From: Candidatus Saccharimonadota bacterium
GTDB lineage: Bacteria; Bacteroidota; Bacteroidia; Flavobacteriales; Blattabacteriaceae
Length of the DNA: 32,000 bases
Reading direction: 5' to 3'
NCBI RefSeq assembly: GCF_024818015.1
Contig: NZ_CP093908.1
Location: 30,001 to 62,000 of the forward strand
The notes under the pieces were generated by a model, which saw nothing but the letters and a program-made list of their open reading frames with translations, made no database searches and was not told the DNA's origin. The first letter of the stretch is position 1; each line of letters begins with the position of its first letter. The translations under genes were made by a program, and so were the position numbers. Shown here one piece after another: positions 4,411 through 32,000 of the stretch.

Positions 4411-5322
4411 ATGAATAAAAAAGCTATTTTATTTTCTACCAGAAAAAGTTTACACCTTTCAAGAGAAATAGCTCATTATTATGGTGATATTTTAGGTAAA
4501 ATAAATTTTTTGGAGTTTAGTGATGGAGAATATGAACCATCTTTTGAACAATCTGTTAGAGGGGCTAATGTATTTTTAATTGGATCTACTATGCCTCCGG
4601 CTGATAATCTTATGGAACTATTACTTATGTGTGATGCAGCAAAACGTGCTTCTGCAAGAAATATTACATTAGTTATACCATATTTTGGGTGGGGAAGACA
4701 AGATAGAAAAGAAAAAAAGAGAGCTCCTATTGGAGCAAAATTAGTATCTAATCTAATTACAGCTTCTGGAGCTACAAGAGTAATTACAATGGATTTACAT
4801 GCCGATCAAATCCAAGGATTTTTTGAAATACCTTTAGAAAATTTAGATGCTTATACTTTATTTATAGAGTATATCAAACAATTGAAATTAGATTGTTTAA
4901 CAATTGCTTCTCCAGATATGGGAGGAGTAAAACGTGCAAGAAGCTATGCTGGATCTTTAAATGCTGATGTAGTAATATGTTATAAAGAAAGAAAAAAAGC
5001 TAATAATATAGATTTAATGAATATTATTGGAGATGTAAAAAATAAAAATGTAATTATTGTAGATGATTTAGTAGATACAGCAGACACAATTTTAATAGCA
5101 TCAAATCTTATGAAAGAACAAGGTGCTAAAAGTATACGTGCAATTGCTACGCATCCAATATTGTCAGGATATGCATATGAAAAAATAGAAAATTCATCTT
5201 TACAAGAACTTGTAGTTACTAATACAATTAAATTAAATTCTAAAAAAATTTCAAAAAAAATCACAATTTTAAATTGTGCGAAAATTTTTGCACAAGTTAT
5301 GCATAAAAACTCCAAAATATGA
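4411..5322 (+). CDS. prs: ribose-phosphate pyrophosphokinase (PRPP synthetase)
   Basis: 303-aa ORF with GWGRQDRK, VITMDLHADQIQGFF, SPDMGGVKRA and the PRPP-binding loop VIIVDDLVDTADT. Confidence 0.95.
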   Translation: MNKKAILFSTRKSLHLSREIAHYYGDILGKINFLEFSDGEYEPSFEQSVRGANVFLIGSTMPPADNLMELLLMCDAAKRASARNITLVIPYFGWGRQDRKEKKRAPIGAKLVSNLITASGATRVITMDLHADQIQGFFEIPLENLDAYTLFIEYIKQLKLDCLTIASPDMGGVKRARSYAGSLNADVVICYKERKKANNIDLMNIIGDVKNKNVIIVDDLVDTADTILIASNLMKEQGAKSIRAIATHPILSGYAYEKIENSSLQELVVTNTIKLNSKKISKKITILNCAKIFAQVMHKNSKI

Positions 5323-5903
5323 ATTGTGTAAACCTTAAAGGGAAAAAAAACAAATTTTTAAAAAAGATAAATAATCGTGAATTAAGAAATTCTGGTTATA
5401 TTCCTTGCATAGTATATGGTATAAATAAAAATATAAAATTTTATATTTTATTATCAATACTAAAAAAAGTGATTTATACTTTGAAAGTATATAAAGTGAT
5501 TATAGAAATCAAAAATGAATATAAAATTGAAGCTCTTTTAAAAGAGATACAATTTAACCCAATAAATGATGATGTCATACATGTTGATTTTTATGAATTA
5601 AAAAAAAAGAAATATATTATTATTTCAGTACCAATAATATCTGTAGGTCATTCTTTAGGAGTCTCTAAAGGAGGTGAATATAAAATTTTTCTAAAAACAA
5701 TCAACTTAAAAGTAATTCCTGAATTTCTAATAGATCATATGGATCTAGATACTAGTAATTTAGATATAGGAGAGAATTTATCTATAAAAGATATATATAA
5801 TCCTAAGTATATTATACTTCATAATTGTAATGATGTAATTGCATCAGTCAAAGTCAAAGTCAAAGTCAAAGTCAAGGGAAAAGGAAAATTGTCTAAAACT
5901 TGA
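5319..5903 (+). CDS. rplY: 50S ribosomal protein L25 (Ctc form) with a repetitive VK/GK C-terminal tail
   Basis: 194-aa ORF. RNSGYIPCIVYG...ALLKEIQFNPINDDVIHVDFYEL matches the L25/Ctc N-domain. Its start overlaps the prs stop in an ATGA junction. Confidence 0.85.
   Translation: MNCVNLKGKKNKFLKKINNRELRNSGYIPCIVYGINKNIKFYILLSILKKVIYTLKVYKVIIEIKNEYKIEALLKEIQFNPINDDVIHVDFYELKKKKYIIISVPIISVGHSLGVSKGGEYKIFLKTINLKVIPEFLIDHMDLDTSNLDIGENLSIKDIYNPKYIILHNCNDVIASVKVKVKVKVKGKGKLSKT
5847..5888 (+). repeat. in-frame hexanucleotide tandem repeat (GTCAAA)x4, then GTCAAG and (GGAAAA)x2, encoding VKVKVKVKVKGKGK
   Basis: Read directly from the sequence: gtcaaagtcaaagtcaaagtcaaagtcaagggaaaaggaaaa, at the 3' end of rplY. 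Confidence 0.95.
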
Positions 5904-24419: not shown

Positions 24420-25178
24420 ATGAAATTTTTTTTAGAAATAACTTATCATGGTGCCTCATTTTATGGATGGCAAATCCAAAAAAACAATATTTCTGTACAA
24501 GAAACAATAGAAAACTGTTTAAGTTTTTTATTAAAAAAAAGTATAAAGATTATAGGCGCAGGAAGGACTGATACTGGTGTACATGCTATACAAATGTTTG
24601 CTCATTTTGATTTTTCTGAAAAAGAAATTCTATTATCTCGAAATTTTCTATTTAAATTAAATTCTTTTTTACCTTTAAATATTAAAATTCTAAATATTTT
24701 TCCTGTTAAAAAAACAATTCATGCTCGTTTTACGGCTATAAGTAGAGTATATGTATATAGGATATCTTTAGGGAAAAATACTTTTTATCTTGATAGAAGT
24801 TGGCAATGGTTATCAAAAAACAAAATAAAATTAAATACCTTAAATCAAGGTGCTAAAATTCTTAAAATATATAAAAACTATATTAGTTTTTGTAAAAAAA
24901 ACTGTAATTATAAAACATATATATGTAATATATATAATGCTAAATGGTATATAAAAAAGAATATATTATCTTTTAATATTGAAGCCAATAGATATTTAAG
25001 AAATATGATAAGATCTATAGTAGGTACTATAATTGAGTTAGGAGTAGGAAAAATAACAATAAAAGATTTTATTAACATTTTCTATGCTAAAGATAGAAAT
25101 CTTGCAGGAATTTCTGCACCAGCAAAAGGTCTGTTTTTAACAAAAATTAATTATCCATTAAATATTAATTTATTTTAA
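24420..25178 (+). CDS. truA: tRNA pseudouridine(38-40) synthase TruA
   Basis: 252-aa ORF with [12 protein letters not shown], the catalytic [11 protein letters not shown], and [10 protein letters not shown]. Confidence 0.93.
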
Positions 25179-28100
25179 AATTTTTTATGAATTTCATTTC
25201 TGAATCTTTTTTTTTAAGTTTTTGATTGCCATCACCAATTAGAATTTCTTCATAAGAATATTTTTTTAATCCAGTTCCTGCAGGAATTTTATTGCCTAAT
25301 ATAACATTTTCTTTTAATCCATTTAAATCATCTTTTTTATTACTTATAGCTGCCTCGTATAAAACTTTTGTAGTTTCTTGAAAGGATGCAGCAGAAAGAA
25401 AAGATTTAGTTTGTAAGGCAGCTTTAGTTATACCTTGAATTATGGGTTTAGATATAGCGGTGATTACATCTCTAAATAATATTTTATTTTTTAATAAACA
25501 ATTTTCTTTTTTTAATTCATTAAAATTAACTAACTGACCTTTAAAAACTTTTTTAGAATCACCTGATTCTTCAATAAATTTCATGTTCAAAATTCTTTGA
25601 TTTTCTTCTAAAAAGACATCTGTAAATTCAATATTACCTTCTAAAAAAGAAGTATCTCCTGATTTTATAATTTCTACTTTTTGTGTCATTTGTCTTACAA
25701 TAACTTCAAAATGTTTATCATTAATTTTTACACCTTGTAAACGATATACTTCCTGGATTTCATTAATCAATTTTTTTTGAGCAGCTCTTAATCCTTTTCT
25801 GTCTAAAATATCATTTAGAACATTATAAGGATTATTAGGATTATCATTATCATTATCATTATCATGATCATTATCATTATCATTATCATGATCATTATCA
25901 TGATCATTATCATTATCATTATCATTATCATTATCATGATCATTATCATTATCATTATCATTATCATGATCATTATCATTATCATTATCATTATCATTAT
26001 CATGATCATTATCATTATCATTATCATTATCATTATCATCATCATCATTTCTTGCTTCAAATAATTCTGATAAACGGGGTAATCCTCCTGTTATATCTCC
26101 TGATTTGAAATCCTTTATAGGGATTTTACTTAAAATACTTCCTTCATTTATAATGTCTCCATTATTTACTACTAAATGTGCACCAACAGGTAGATTGTAA
26201 CTTTTTAAGATTTCATTTTTTTGATTTACTATTTTTAAAGTAGGTGTTTTAGTTTTACCTTTCAATATTACTTTTTCTTTCTGTTCGGATTTTTCAATAT
26301 TTGAATATAATATTTTTCCTGGAAATTCTGCAATAATAACAGCATTATATGGATCCCAACTACAGATAGTATCATTTTTTTTAACTAATTGTTTATTAGA
26401 AACATACAATTTAGCACCATATGGAATTTTTTTTTTCATGAAAATAACTTGATCTTTATTTAATAATAATATTTCAGATGACCTAGAAATAACTATGTTT
26501 TTAACTACTTTAATATTTTCATATTCTATGATTCCATCATATTTAGCTTTTAATTTTGAATATTCATATATATTACCAGCTGTACCTCCAACATGAAAAG
26601 TACGAAGTGTAAGTTGTGTACCTGGTTCACCAATTGATTGTGCAGCTATTACTCCTATTGCTTCTCCTTTTTGAATCATTAAACCTGTTGCAAGATTTCT
26701 TCCATAACATTTTATACAAATACCTGTTTTAGATTTACATGTAAGAGGAGATCTTACTTCAATAGATACTATTGAAGCCTTTTCTATAAGATTAATATTT
26801 TTTTCATCTATCATTTGAGATGATTTTATTAAAATCTTATTATTAGTAGGATCATAAATATTATTTATAGCAATACGACCTAAAACCCTGGATGATAATG
26901 TTTCTATTATTTTTTCTTTTTTTTTTATTGCTGAGATTTTAATTCCTACTAAAGTTTTACAATCATCTTCTTGTATAATGACATCTTGTGCTGAATCTAC
27001 TAAACGTCTTGTTAAATATCCAGCATCTGCTGTTTTTAAAGCAGTATCAGCTAATCCTTTTCTTGCCCCATGAGTAGATATAAAATATTCCAATATAGAT
27101 AATCCTTCTAAAAAATTAGATAAAATTGGATTTTCTATAATTTCTGAACCTAATGAACTAGTTTTTTGAGGTTTAGCCATAAGTCCTCTCATTCCAGATA
27201 ATTGACGGATTTGCTCTTTTGAACTTCTAGCACCAGAATCAAGCATCATATATACTGAATTAAATCCTTGTTTACTTTTTCGCATATAATTAATCACTTT
27301 TTCTGTTAAACTAACATTAGTATTAGTCCATATATCTATAATTTTATTATAACGTTCATTATTAGTAATTAATCCCAAATTATAATCGTCTTTTACCAAA
27401 GAAACTTTTTCAATAGCTCTTTTGACAAGAGATTTTTTTTCTTTTGGAATACTTATATCATTTAAATTAAATGATAAACCGCCTTTAAAGGCATGATAAT
27501 ATCCTAAATCTTTTATTTTATCTAAAAATCTTGCGGTAGTAGGGATATTAGTTTGATATAAAATAGAAGAGATTATTTCTCTTAAAGATTGATTTGTTAA
27601 TAATTTATTTATATAACCCACTTTTGGTGGAACCACTCTATTAAATAATACTCTACCGACTGTTGTTTTAATAATTTTTGATATTAATCCGATATTTATT
27701 TGAACTTTTATTATTGCATGAATATCTACAACCTTATTATTATAAGCTATTTCAACTTCTTCAAGAGAAGAAAAACACATTCCTTCTCCTTGAATTTGAC
27801 TTTCAGAAGTAGATTTTAATTCTTTAGTCATATAATATAAACCTAATACCATATCTTGTGATGGAACTGTAATAGGATATCCATTGGCAGGATTTAAAAT
27901 ATTTTGTGATGCTAACATTAATAATTTAGCTTCTAAAATGGCTTCATTTGATAATGGTAAATGTACTGCCATCTGATCTCCATCAAAATCAGCATTAAAT
28001 GCCGAACAAACTAATGGATGTAATAAGATAGCCTTTCCTTCAATAAGTTTAGGTTGAAATGATTGAATTCCTAATCTATGAAGTGTGGGAGCTCTATTTA

Positions 28101-29448
28101 ATAATACAGGATGACCTTTTAAAAGATATTTTAAGATATTCCATATCATGGGATCTTTTTTAGAGATAAGTTTTTTAGCTGATTTAACTGTTCTTACAAT
28201 CTTTCTTTCAAGAAGTTTTCTAATAAGAAAAGGTTTATAAATTTCAGCCGCTATTTCTTTAGGTAATCCACATTCATGTAATTTTAATTTTGGACCTACG
28301 ACTATTACCGATCTTGCTGAATAATCTACTCTTTTCCCTAAAAGGTTTTGTCTAAAACGACCTTGTTTTCCTTTTAAAGAATCAGATAAAGATTTTAATG
28401 GTCTATTAGATTCTGATCTAACTACTAAAGTTTTTTTAGAATTATCTAAAAGGGAATCGACCGCTTCTTGTAGCATTCTTTTTTCATTACGTAATATTAT
28501 TTCAGGAGCTGAAATATGTATTAATCTTTTTAATCTATTATTACGAATTAATATTCTTCTATAAAAATCATTTAAATCAGAACTAGCATACCCACCTCCA
28601 TCTAAAGCAACTAAAGGACGTAATTCTGGAGGAATAACAGGAAGAACTTTTAAAATAATAGATTCAATTTTGTTTCCTTTTTTTTTACCTTCTAGAAAAC
28701 ATTCTACTACATTTAATCTTTTAAATAATTCAATCTTTCTTTGTTTTGATTCTTCATTTTTAATTTCTTTTTTTAAATCAGATAATAAAACTTCTAAATC
28801 AACACGTATTAATAATTCTTCTAAACATTCAGCCCCCATTTTAGCAATAAATTTGTTGGGGTCATTATCATTTAAATATTTATTCCCTATTGGAATCTTA
28901 TTTAAGATATATGTATACTCTTCTTCAGTTAAGAAATCTAATTTTTGAAAATTATTAGCAATTCCTGGTTGAATTACTACATAACGTTCATAATAAATTA
29001 TCATATCAAGTTGTTGAGATGATAATCCTAAAATCGAACCTATTTTATTTGGAGTAGAAGTAGATCTAAATCCCCATATATGAACTATAGGTACTACTAA
29101 ATTGATATGCCCCATTCTGGTTCTACGAACTGTGTTTTTTGTTATTTCTACGCCACATCTATTGCATAATAATCCTTCTTTAAATTTTTGGTTTAATTGT
29201 CTTAAACGGATTAATTCTTTATAAATTGTTTTTTTATATTTGCCACAAGAACATTCATAATCTCTTATAGGTCCAAAAATTTTTTCACAAAACAAACCAT
29301 TTTTTTCCGGTTTCTTAGTACGATAATTGATTGTATCAGGTTTCCTTATTTCGCCATATGAATCTTTTAAAATATCTTCAGGTGAAGAAATCCTAAGACT
29401 AATTTTAGTAGTCATAAAATGACTAATTTTAGATTTTTTTTTATTCAT
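25165..29448 (-). CDS. rpoC: DNA-directed RNA polymerase subunit beta-prime, carrying an internal D/N/H repeat
   Basis: Has [19 protein letters not shown], the catalytic [28 protein letters not shown] and [21 protein letters not shown]. The start is placed at the ATG at 29448 ([18 protein letters not shown]...) by analogy with flavobacterial N-termini. The longest ORF starts at 29535, in an ATGA overlap with the rpoB stop. Confidence 0.95.
25840..26049 (-). repeat. in-frame hexanucleotide microsatellite of about 35 units: GATAAT (Asp-Asn) with six GATCAT (Asp-His) variants and a GAT x4 cap
   Basis: Read directly: the plus strand is (ATTATC)n with ATGATC variants from about 25840 to 26038, then atcatcatcatc. 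It translates on the minus strand as NDDDD(ND)5HD(ND)5HD(ND)4HD(ND)5HD-ND-HD(ND)3HD(ND)3N inside rpoC. Confidence 0.97.
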
Positions 29449-29531
29449 TTTATGAAGAAAATGAATAACTTTCAAGATTTGAATTTGATTCCTCAGCTTA
29501 ATTGGGTTTTTTATTTTAATTTGTTTAGTTT

Positions 29532-32000
29532 TCATTTCTTTAGCAGTTCTTTAAGTTTTTTTAGTTTTATTTCTTTAACTTTGTTTTTATATTTTATTAT
29601 ATCTTTATCCTTAATCTCTATTCTTACTTTTATTTTTTGATTTATTTTTTCTTTTTTTTTTATTACTTCTAAATTAAGACTTAAACCTAATCCTTTTAAT
29701 TCCTTCAACAATACATGAAATGATTCTGGTATCCCTGGATTGGGCATTGTTTCCCTTTTAACAATAGCTTCATAAGTTTTTGTACGGCCTTTTACATCAT
29801 CAGATTTTACAGTAAGTATTTCACGTAAAATATTTGCTGCTCCAAAGGCTTCTAAAGCCCAAACTTCCATTTCACCCAATCTTTGTCCTCCAAATTTAGA
29901 TTTTCCTCCTAATGGTTGTTGAGTAATTAATGAATATGGACCAATTGATCTAGCATGCATTTTATCATCAACCATATGATTTAATTTTAACATATAAATT
30001 ACCCCTACTGTAACAGGTTGATCAAATTTTTCTCCTGTTTCTCCATCAAATAAATAAGTATTTCCAAAAAGAGGGATATTAGCTATATCAGTATATTTTG
30101 ATATTTCTTCTATAGAAGCTCCATCAAATATTGGAGTTATAAAATTTATTCCCAGTTTTTCACCTGCCCAACCTAAAATTGTTTCATAGATTTGACCTAG
30201 ATTCATACGTGAAGGTACACCTAATGGATTTAAAACTAAATCTACCGAAGTCCCATCTTCTAAATATGGCATATCCTCTTCTTTAACAATACGTGCCACA
30301 ATTCCTTTATTTCCATGTCTTCCAGACATTTTATCACCTACTTTTAAGTTCCTTTTTTTAGCAATCAAAACTTTAGCGATTTTAATAATACCTGATGTTG
30401 ATGTAATTTCATCTCCAATTAATAATCTATTTTTTTGACGTTGAAACTTCATTTTTAATTCATTTTTTTTAAAAAAATAAAGTTTTATAATTTTAAAAAA
30501 TTTATTATTTAAATATTTATTATTTAAATATTTATGATTTTCCCAAATTTTAGAGATTCTATCTCTCTCTTTAGAAGAGAATATTTTATTTAAAAAATTC
30601 AAAATTTTCACTTTTGGGATTCTAAAAGAAGAACTATATCCTGAGCATTCTAATACAAGAATTAGTTTATTAAATAATAATTTTTTTAAAAGAATTAAAT
30701 TCTTAATATATTTATAATATAAATTTCTTATCATCAATTTTTGAATTTCTTCATATTCTTTTGAATAAATTTTTGTATCAATTACTACTCCAAATAAAGA
30801 GGAATCAGCTTTTAAAGATGTATTTTTTATAGTTCCTACTTTCTTTCCAAAAATTGCTTTTAAAAAGTTTTCTTCTGAAGTTGGATATCCTTCTTTTTTA
30901 GGAGTTATTCTTCCTATAAGGACATCGCCAGGTTTAACTTCAGACCCGATCTTTATAATTCCATCTTTATCTAATTTTTTTTTTTTTTCCTCATTAATAT
31001 TTGGTAGATCAAATGTGAATTCTTCCATTCCTAACTTAGTTTCACGTACTTCTAATGAATATTCATCTAGATGAATTGATGTAAACCAATCCTCACGGAC
31101 TACTTTTTCAGAAATTGCTATAGCATCTTCAAAATTATATCCTTTGAAAGGCATAAAAGCAACTTTTATATTTCTACCTAATGCTAATTTTCCATTTTTA
31201 GTTGCAAATCCTTCACATAAAACTTGACCTTTAGTAACATACATTCCTTGTTTTACAATTGGGATTATATTAATACAAGTATTTTGATTAGTTTTTCTAA
31301 ATTTAATAAAATTATAATTTTGAATTCTCTTTTCAAAAGAAAGTAATTTTTCTTTTTCAGAAATAAAATATTTCACCTTAATATGATTAGCATCTACTGA
31401 TTCAACTACACCATATCCTTCTGCATATATTAATGCATTGACATATGGTGCTAAATGTTTTTCTAATCCAGTTCCTACTATCGGTGCTTTAGGATTTAAT
31501 AAAGGTACAGCTTGCCGCATCATGTTTGATCCCATTAAAGCCCTATTAGCATCATCATGTTCAAGAAATGGAATTAAAGATGCTGAAATAGATGCTATTT
31601 GATTAGTAGAAACATCTATATAATTAATTTTTTTATAATTAACCATAGGAAAATCAGCATTTACACGAACTATAATGTTATGTTTTAATAAACCGGTTTT
31701 ATAATTTAAAATAGCATTAGCTTGTGTTATTAATTTGTCAGATTCTTGATCACTACTAAGATAGATTGGTAGCTCATTTAGAACTACCTTTCCTTTTTGA
31801 ACTTTGAAATAAGGAGTCTCTATAAACCCCATAGGATTAATTCTTGCAAAAACACATAAAGAAGATATTAATCCAATATTCGGACCTTCTGGTGTTTCTA
31901 TAGGGCATAATCTTCCATAATGAGAATAATTAACATCGCGGATTTCAAATCCAGCTCTTTCTCTTGACAAGCCCCCAGTACCTAAAGAAGATATTCTTCT
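29532..32000 (-). CDS. rpoB: DNA-directed RNA polymerase subunit beta, C-terminal ~822 codons (5' end beyond the window)
   Basis: The frame is open from position 32000 ([23 protein letters not shown]...). Has [43 protein letters not shown] and [19 protein letters not shown]. Confidence 0.96.
30501..30535 (-). repeat. 15-nt in-frame tandem duplication (2.3 copies) inside rpoB, encoding [10 protein letters not shown]
   Basis: The plus strand reads tttattatttaaata twice, then tttat. It lies in the variable, lineage-specific region of RpoB. Confidence 0.85.

Follow-up and report, generated by a model that had tools for sequence, protein, structure and literature searches.

The question raised by this locus is how the β' subunit of a bacterial RNA polymerase (RNAP) comes to carry a long microsatellite at the place where its jaw is expected, and what became of the jaw itself. 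The window studied here is the whole stretch of 32,000 nucleotides (nt) from contig NZ_CP093908.1 (positions 30,001 to 62,000). It contains rpoC, the β' gene (25165..29535, minus strand; an open reading frame (ORF) of 1456 amino acids (aa) with no internal stop, identified by Pfam and structure matches), and within rpoC an array of GATAAT/GATCAT hexamers (25840..26049, minus strand; codons 1163-1232, coding for N D4 followed by ND/HD units). The strain is a Karelsulcia (Sulcia) muelleri whose host is a Nesophrosyne leafhopper from Hawaii. An earlier note on this DNA described the jaw as replaced by the microsatellite. The jaw is missing and the repeat does lie in its scar, but the "replacement" merges two events: the deletion is clade-wide, and elsewhere in the clade it is bridged by linkers of 10-61 aa. 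The explanation that we regard as probable is therefore a clade-wide loss of the jaw, followed by the growth, through slippage, of a tolerated, disordered acidic loop.

The loss of the jaw is shown by comparisons with solved structures. The last conserved element ahead of the missing region is the C-terminal trigger-helix motif (aa 1150-1162; 26050..26088, minus strand), which aligns with E. coli residues 1136-1148 and with the Flagellimonas taeanensis sequence up to residue 1152. In a phmmer comparison with the β' chain of F. taeanensis RNAP (9N9P) the alignment stops at LFEARN (query 1165, residue 1154) and resumes at NDILDRKG (query 1241, residue 1220), so that the 66-aa jaw of 9N9P (NPSNPAVV...SDGSITPE) has no aligned partner in the window RpoC; the same was found with the RNAP of Porphyromonas gingivalis (8DKC). 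The jaw segment was aligned in every solved bacterial RNAP matched. On the distal side, aa 1233-1244 (25804..25839, minus strand) form the edge of the linker together with a remnant of the last jaw residues, as judged from the linker comparison and from the resumption of the 9N9P alignment at query position 1241; this remnant resembles the ..ISL(Y/N)DIL of jaw-bearing and treehopper-type Sulcia, and the conserved helix then follows.

The E. coli numbering places the deletion precisely. FEAR corresponds to E. coli residues 1145-1148 (the E. coli segment used for the numbering matches the E. coli β' chains exactly), and the gap in the window protein opens directly past the equivalent of R1148. 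Its first residue is thus also that of the classical jaw deletion (1149-1190), but it is larger. The missing stretch matches the jaw fragment of PDB entry 2LMC_B (E. coli residues 1153-1213, PMC3778932), an independently folding unit solved with T7 Gp2, and it covers the DNA-contacting jaw residues (the region of E. coli T1169, R1174 and M1180; contacts according to PMC3778932).

The spacing of conserved landmarks agrees with the alignments. The distance from LFEAR to VYRLQGV is exactly 90 aa in 239 jaw-bearing RpoC sequences of Bacteroidetes (Flavobacteria, Blattabacterium, other Flavobacteriales symbionts, and the Sulcia of spittlebugs and cicadas) and 94 aa in one cicada-type sequence, against 29-81 aa in the jaw-less Sulcia group and 100 aa in the window RpoC. 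The missing jaw fold claimed in the earlier note is thus borne out both by the unpartnered 66-aa segment and by the departure from the fixed spacing of 90 aa. The remaining landmarks are colinear, with NADFDGD and FHVGG separated by 461-471 aa in all but the cicada Sulcia (490-494 aa). Neither landmark spacing nor the alignment to solved β' chains revealed a jaw-like segment elsewhere in the window RpoC; since the rest of the protein is colinear, the jaw strands are not retained at another position, which the earlier note had named as the observation that would overturn its reading. A relocated jaw in the trigger-loop insert was considered, and the HMMER match to the 9N9P jaw (2.4 bits, E about 500) was judged to be noise. 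On the evidence of these sequence comparisons, the jaw (the equivalent of E. coli 1149 to ~1213) is deleted from the window RpoC.

The distribution of this state was traced by protein searches, in which a 466-aa C-terminal fragment retrieved partial proteins only and the full-length query recovered the panel of Sulcia sequences. Jaw-less RpoC proteins are encoded by Sulcia-ALF, by strains on contigs of 190,405 and 190,657 bp, by the treehopper symbiont ENCA (218,034 bp), by several metagenome-assembled genomes (MAGs; 137-215 kb) and by all five Nesophrosyne genomes examined; among themselves these proteins share at least 90% identity. The full 70-aa segment between LFEAR and IL, and with it the jaw, is kept in the spittlebug Sulcia CARI and PSPU and in the cicada Sulcia SMDSEM and others, whose RpoC proteins are 69-78% identical to the jaw-less group; Blattabacterium is likewise jaw-bearing. 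As the jaw-less state is common to several lineages while the Sulcia of spittlebugs and cicadas keep the jaw, the sequences indicate that the deletion is old and fixed in the Sulcia clade of deltocephaline leafhoppers and treehoppers. The split between leafhoppers and treehoppers dates back some 100 million years.

The neighbouring trigger-loop insertion domain (FHVGG..DITGG, 167 aa; 26098..26598, minus strand) is kept in the window protein, although the spacing comparison shows it to be trimmed relative to relatives: over the corresponding distance, Flavobacteria and Blattabacterium have 189-190 aa, spittlebug and cicada Sulcia 182 aa, jaw-less Sulcia 165-170 aa and one member of that group (P0131) 151 aa. 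An AlphaFold2 (AF2) model gives it a beta-rich fold, with a predicted local distance difference test score (pLDDT) of 66-85 over most of its length. The insert thus shrinks stepwise, and the parts of the enzyme that surround the downstream DNA channel seem to be eroding jointly.

What fills the scar differs greatly from strain to strain. The linkers between LFEAR and IL..KG in jaw-less proteins range from 10 to 80 aa, an 8-fold range among proteins at least 90% identical. The shortest (P0131) reads NDSNDNYDGY; deltocephaline strains have 15-26 aa of D, S, N and P, including an (NP)n micro-repeat; treehopper-type linkers are 50-61 aa long and made up of D, Y, S and NAH(Y) repeats, and a fragment from a MAG shows a (DY)n variant. 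Different lineages thus carry different repeat motifs (DY, SS, NAH(Y), NP) at the same site. The window linker, at 80 aa from LFEAR to IL, has counterparts of just 20-24 aa in strains ~95% identical, and the tract between the same anchors measures 57, 69, 200, 237 (window) and 245 nt in the five Nesophrosyne Sulcia genomes, a 4-fold variation among strains ~95% identical. The earlier note had remarked on the similar length of the repeat and the lost jaw. The match (70 residues lost, 70 in the repeat) is coincidental, because the linkers of relatives vary and none of them shows it.

Composition is far more constant than length. Lys and Arg are absent from all 681 residues of 20 distinct jaw-less linkers, compared with 16.4% in the rest of RpoC; the 20 linkers are related by descent, and the count is therefore not a formal test, but the rule holds for motifs as unlike as DN, DY, SS and NAH. 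The linkers are also almost devoid of hydrophobic residues, start N-D/E-rich, and are built of AT-rich codons (GAT, AAT, TAT, TCT and CAT) in short tandem repeats. This points either to selection against basic residues next to the DNA channel or to a use for the acidity itself. Immediately after the array, the window PNNP adjoins the C-terminal jaw remnant (..ISLNDIL / ..NVLNEIL), at the point where relatives have (NP)n. The earlier note had aligned this PNNP with the PSNP that follows FEAR in jaw-bearing proteins; it may instead be derived from a repeat, since the copy number of (NP)n varies at that point in relatives. The variation itself is seen in P0122, P0251 and P0123, where an (Asn-Pro)n micro-repeat (NSNSNPNPNPNNP) of differing copy number directly precedes PYNVLNEIL.

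Two further observations concern the same gene in other Sulcia. On one MAG contig of 62,435 bp, rpoC is represented by two partial proteins (P0135 and P0002; 980 aa and 275 aa), and the C-terminal piece begins within a (DY)n tract, another assembly or annotation break at this locus. In cicada-type Sulcia RpoC (P0138, P0136, P0139) a different acidic low-complexity insert (e.g. LEGEGEGECESESESESESEAEG) is found between MAKPK and SEIIENP and widens the distance between NADFDGD and FHVGG from 470 to 490-494 aa. As this insert sits at another site, acidic repeats in Sulcia RpoC are recurrent.

The array of the window strain is the extreme product of this variable site. It occupies 210 nt, which read (ATTATC)n on the plus strand, the coding strand being the minus strand, and comprises 70 codons of only three types (36 GAT, 28 AAT and 6 CAT). 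The encoded peptide, N-DDDD-(ND/HD)n, spans RpoC residues 1163-1232 and contains 36 Asp, 28 Asn and 6 His, with a net charge of ~-36 and no basic (Lys/Arg) residue. The description in the earlier note of a tandem GATAAT array with six GATCAT units, in frame and free of stops, agrees with the sequence in all but the strand, as the gene lies on the minus strand; the flanks that it quoted are identical to the translation on both sides. Tandem Repeats Finder reports a period of 6, 34.3 copies, 93% matches and a score of 363, the runner-up in the 32-kb window scoring only 95. A 24-nt (GATAAT)4 probe with at most 1 mismatch yields 29 matches, all of them within 25840-26043, compared with 0.00 expected from 100 dinucleotide-preserving shuffles, which rules out a chance origin.

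The array does indeed outscore every other repeat of the window. The remark in the earlier note that the genome is otherwise almost free of repeats needs one correction, as a second in-frame hexamer repeat, a perfect AGTCAA x5, is found at 5846-5875. It gives the product of ORF 5319..5903 a (VK)n tail at the C-terminus (..ASVKVKVKVKVKGKGKLSKT); this gene of housekeeping size we take, as a guess only, to encode ribosomal protein L25.

With A standing for GATAAT and B for GATCAT, the unit string of the array is AAAAAB AAAAAB AAAAB AAAAAB AB AAAB AAAA. Its best self-match is at an offset of 36 nt, and no k-mer with k>=99 is duplicated. The short-tract Nesophrosyne siblings carry three or four GATAAT units, and of the five Nesophrosyne tracts only that of the window strain contains CAT codons (none in the four siblings). 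The proposal of the earlier note that the His-Asp pairs could bind metal ions loses ground here: none of the four siblings has such pairs in its tract, and a conserved metal site is accordingly unlikely.

The comparisons show that the jaw was deleted in the common ancestor of the sampled leafhopper and treehopper Sulcia, and that a short surface linker now connects the end of the trigger helix (..LFEAR) with the next helix (..DIL.RKG..); the linker keeps an acidic, polar composition but neither a fixed length nor a fixed sequence. For what came later, the data suggest the following course. Repeats within the linker may expand and contract by replication slippage, with only changes by multiples of 3 nt surviving in an essential gene. 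In the window strain, a seed of 3-4 (GAT AAT) units, kept in the siblings, probably grew to ~33 units. A single A-to-C change could have created GATCAT (His), which would have spread by slippage of a 36-nt higher-order block of six units, followed by small contractions. Growth and shrinkage of the linker would thus be filtered for frame and for non-basic composition, and the product would be a disordered, strongly anionic loop of 70 residues at the former site of the jaw, tolerated rather than needed. That such repeats change in Karelsulcia is documented for atpB, in which a 6-bp coding repeat expands from 6 to 7 or 9 units in laboratory lines (PMC13345377). Judging from the sequences, expansion by replication slippage, and not for a new function, is the most likely origin of the repeat. 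A phase-variable contingency locus was also considered and rejected, as the unit is 6 nt (a multiple of 3) and the gene is essential.

The acidic tract could, on the other hand, be a functional module, either a tethered polyanion that sits at the mouth of the downstream-DNA channel and gates it or mimics DNA, or an Asp/His metal tract, with its strength tuned by repeat length. Every jaw-less linker is N-D/E-rich at its start, the lack of Lys and Arg holds throughout the 681 residues, and the linker occupies the former site of a DNA-binding domain. The primary sigma factors of Bacteroidetes are not known to have region 1.1. In E. coli, the negative patch of Gp2 on the jaw blocks open-complex formation, and region 1.1 (R1.1) serves as a negatively charged placeholder for DNA (PMC3778932). 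By analogy with sigma70 region 1.1 and Gp2, one might envisage a cis-acting acidic arm of tunable length that excludes non-promoter DNA or speeds promoter escape; we think this improbable, but if it were true, repeat slippage would provide the symbiont population with a heritable dial on global transcription. A functional module of whichever kind would have to accommodate a linker whose length varies 8-fold (10-80 aa) at >=90% identity and 4-fold among strains ~95% identical, whose motif differs between lineages and whose His residues are missing from four sibling tracts. The AF2 models, moreover, predict no folded structure for it: in the isolated C-terminal fragment the tract has pLDDT values of 24-30 and no secondary structure, and the isolated fragments of the window protein and of a short-linker relative (P0001) have a mean pLDDT of 50. 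The acidic bias could be explained by GAT-rich seeds together with purifying selection against sticky basic residues. To judge from its composition, the tract should behave as a strong polyanion in an expanded coil. On balance, we regard a functional module as unlikely.

A different doubt concerns the reality of the long tract. For the 20 Sulcia genomes from Nesophrosyne leafhoppers of Hawaii (190.3-190.9 kb), ten insects were pooled at a time, MiSeq 2x300 reads were assembled by SPAdes (k=127), and the finishing was manual (PMC9379567). It is conceivable that the repeat was inflated or stitched together during assembly or finishing, the true locus being short as in siblings or of some other length. 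The exact 1456-aa product matched no gene on record, no independent assembly of the strain was found, and two sibling assemblies contain suspicious, frame-breaking junctions in the tract. These are CP093909.1 (L002 4700-5000) and CP093902.1 (L003 4750-5000), with tracts of 245 and 200 nt, respectively, and a +2 frameshift inside; their rpoC is called as a protein of 1244 or 1227 aa plus a "hypothetical protein" of 201 aa (WP_338137889.1). One junction consists of 17 units, "AT" and another 17 units, the other of a duplicated GAGAATCCTA block, and both have the look of wrong joins within perfect repeats that exceed k in length. The window tract differs in being in frame, and its irregularly spaced GATCAT units render every k-mer of >=99 nt across it unique, so that a k=127 graph can resolve the tract; reads of 300 nt are long enough to span 210 nt. 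Long GATAAT tracts are present in three separate assemblies of related strains, which argues that some large expansion exists in the group, and the genome authors report even coverage in their read-mapping checks (PMC9379567). We regard an artefact as unlikely. The same two frameshifts, with the separately called 201-aa C-terminal ORF, might also be taken to mean that rpoC is decaying or splitting at the repeat and that the locus is heading for a frameshift. This we consider very improbable: the window ORF runs unbroken to its stop and has NADFDGD and the full set of five Rpb1 domains, no second copy of rpoC is known, not even the smallest symbiont genomes have given up the core RNAP genes (PMC2175510), and the sibling junctions resemble mis-joins.

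Several points nonetheless weigh against the reading that we prefer, an old jaw loss followed by tolerated slippage. The node at which the deletion occurred is only bracketed, as the Sulcia of sharpshooters and planthoppers lie outside the recovered set. The lack of basic and hydrophobic residues in the linkers means that the tract is under some selection, and "merely tolerated" may understate its role. The AF2 fragment models are poor, with the flanking helices also below 50, and barely separate "disordered" from "out of context". A single assembly, made from short reads of pooled insects, is the basis for the exact copy number and even for the intact frame, and the two frameshifted sibling tracts imply that assemblies are unreliable at this locus. 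The transcription phenotypes considered below are extrapolated from E. coli.

If an old jaw loss with later slippage is correct, the functional change that matters should be the older of the two. The E. coli jaw binds duplex DNA non-specifically, and its deletion destabilises the open complex, suppresses pausing, accelerates elongation and lowers intrinsic termination (PMC3778932). By extension, the Sulcia enzyme should form shorter-lived open complexes, pause less, elongate faster and terminate more weakly at intrinsic terminators. The effects on open-complex stability and pausing that the earlier note associated with the microsatellite would, on this analysis, follow from the loss of the jaw and not from the repeat.

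In all other respects the gene is an ordinary rpoC. The five Pfam RNA_pol_Rpb1 domains 1-5 (PF04997, PF00623, PF04983, PF05000 and PF04998) occur in order and all score above their cut-offs (E-values 4.5e-73 to 3.4e-18), the catalytic NADFDGD and the trigger-helix GGLPR..FEAR motifs are both present in the translation, and the ORF matches the solved β' chains of Bacteroidetes with 1811 bits (9N9P_D) and 1675 bits (8DKC_D). The array-bearing rpoC has been deposited and annotated as an ordinary β' subunit: the RefSeq record WP_259288664.1 of Candidatus Karelsulcia muelleri starts 29 codons downstream and comprises 1427 aa. The start is ambiguous (29449-29535, minus strand), as the longest ORF adds these 29 N-terminal codons and both forms are represented by database proteins (P0241 and P0243) from an NCBI contig of 190,867 bp. 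The closest relatives of the window RpoC are encoded by records CP093893, CP093900, CP093902 and CP093909. Directly upstream lies the 3' part of rpoB (29532..32000, minus strand), an ORF fragment that runs off the window and whose stop overlaps the rpoC start by 4 nt; the rpoC-adjacent gene of sibling genomes has RNA_pol_Rpb2 domains. At its 3' end, rpoC shares 14 nt (25165-25178) with the 3' end of a convergent ORF (24420..25178) for a 252-aa, truA-like pseudouridine synthase, an arrangement also found in sibling genomes. The window has a G+C content of ~22% and includes leuABCD-like genes, an ATP synthase operon, mnmG and tRNA synthetase genes.

In the literature on Sulcia rpoC and on the jaw in endosymbionts we found no description of a loss of the β' jaw or of the repeat, and the Nesophrosyne genome paper (PMC9379567) does not mention rpoC. 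What is new is thus a naturally jaw-less bacterial RNAP with a slippage-prone acidic linker as its scar, domain loss in symbiont genes being already a known theme (PMC2175510). The clade-wide loss of the jaw is the more interesting result, and the microsatellite alone would be a strain-level curiosity. An obligate symbiont could be running its whole transcription programme on a type of polymerase that in E. coli forms unstable open complexes and pauses poorly, which offers RNAP biochemists a natural experiment on the purpose of the jaw and, for the study of symbiosis, a case of single-domain erosion within the most conserved enzyme. In a genome noted for its stasis, few coding sites vary as much in length as the scar, which might serve as a strain marker. 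On the practical side, two public genomes have rpoC called in two pieces, probably through mis-assembly.

Among known systems, the closest counterpart is the E. coli β'-delta(1149-1190) mutant (Ederth et al. 2002, according to PMC3778932), which has the same start after LFEAR and has lost the same surface that binds the downstream duplex. The Sulcia deletion is, however, natural, fixed in a clade and larger (1149 to ~1213), and is bridged by a variable acidic low-complexity linker rather than a clean junction; for the Sulcia enzyme the phenotypes are predictions by analogy. Domain erosion in Carsonella (PMC2175510) likewise shortens essential genes by specific domains, with sigma-factor decay reported there and domain loss from core subunits not discussed. 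Minimal proteomes are reported to contain very little disorder (PMC5016991). SI3 (β' insertion 6) of E. coli and the trigger-loop insert of Bacteroidetes, the latter present here with its 167 aa, belong to the same variable neighbourhood of β', but those insertions are folded beta-sandwich domains that were gained by a lineage, whereas in Sulcia a domain was lost and a repeat is found. The sigma70 region 1.1 and the T7 Gp2 strip share with the rpoC tract a strong negative charge, placed on or beside the jaw side of the channel; they are, however, folded and conserved and their effects have been demonstrated, while the tract is of low complexity and variable in length, and any effect of it is hypothetical. 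With respect to the repeat itself, the best parallel is the ATTACT repeat of Karelsulcia atpB (PMC13345377), which represents the same group of organisms and the same in-frame expansion of a 6-bp unit in a housekeeping gene; there, the array grows from 6 to 9 units, whereas the rpoC tract has reached ~33 units and is located in the scar of a deleted polymerase domain.

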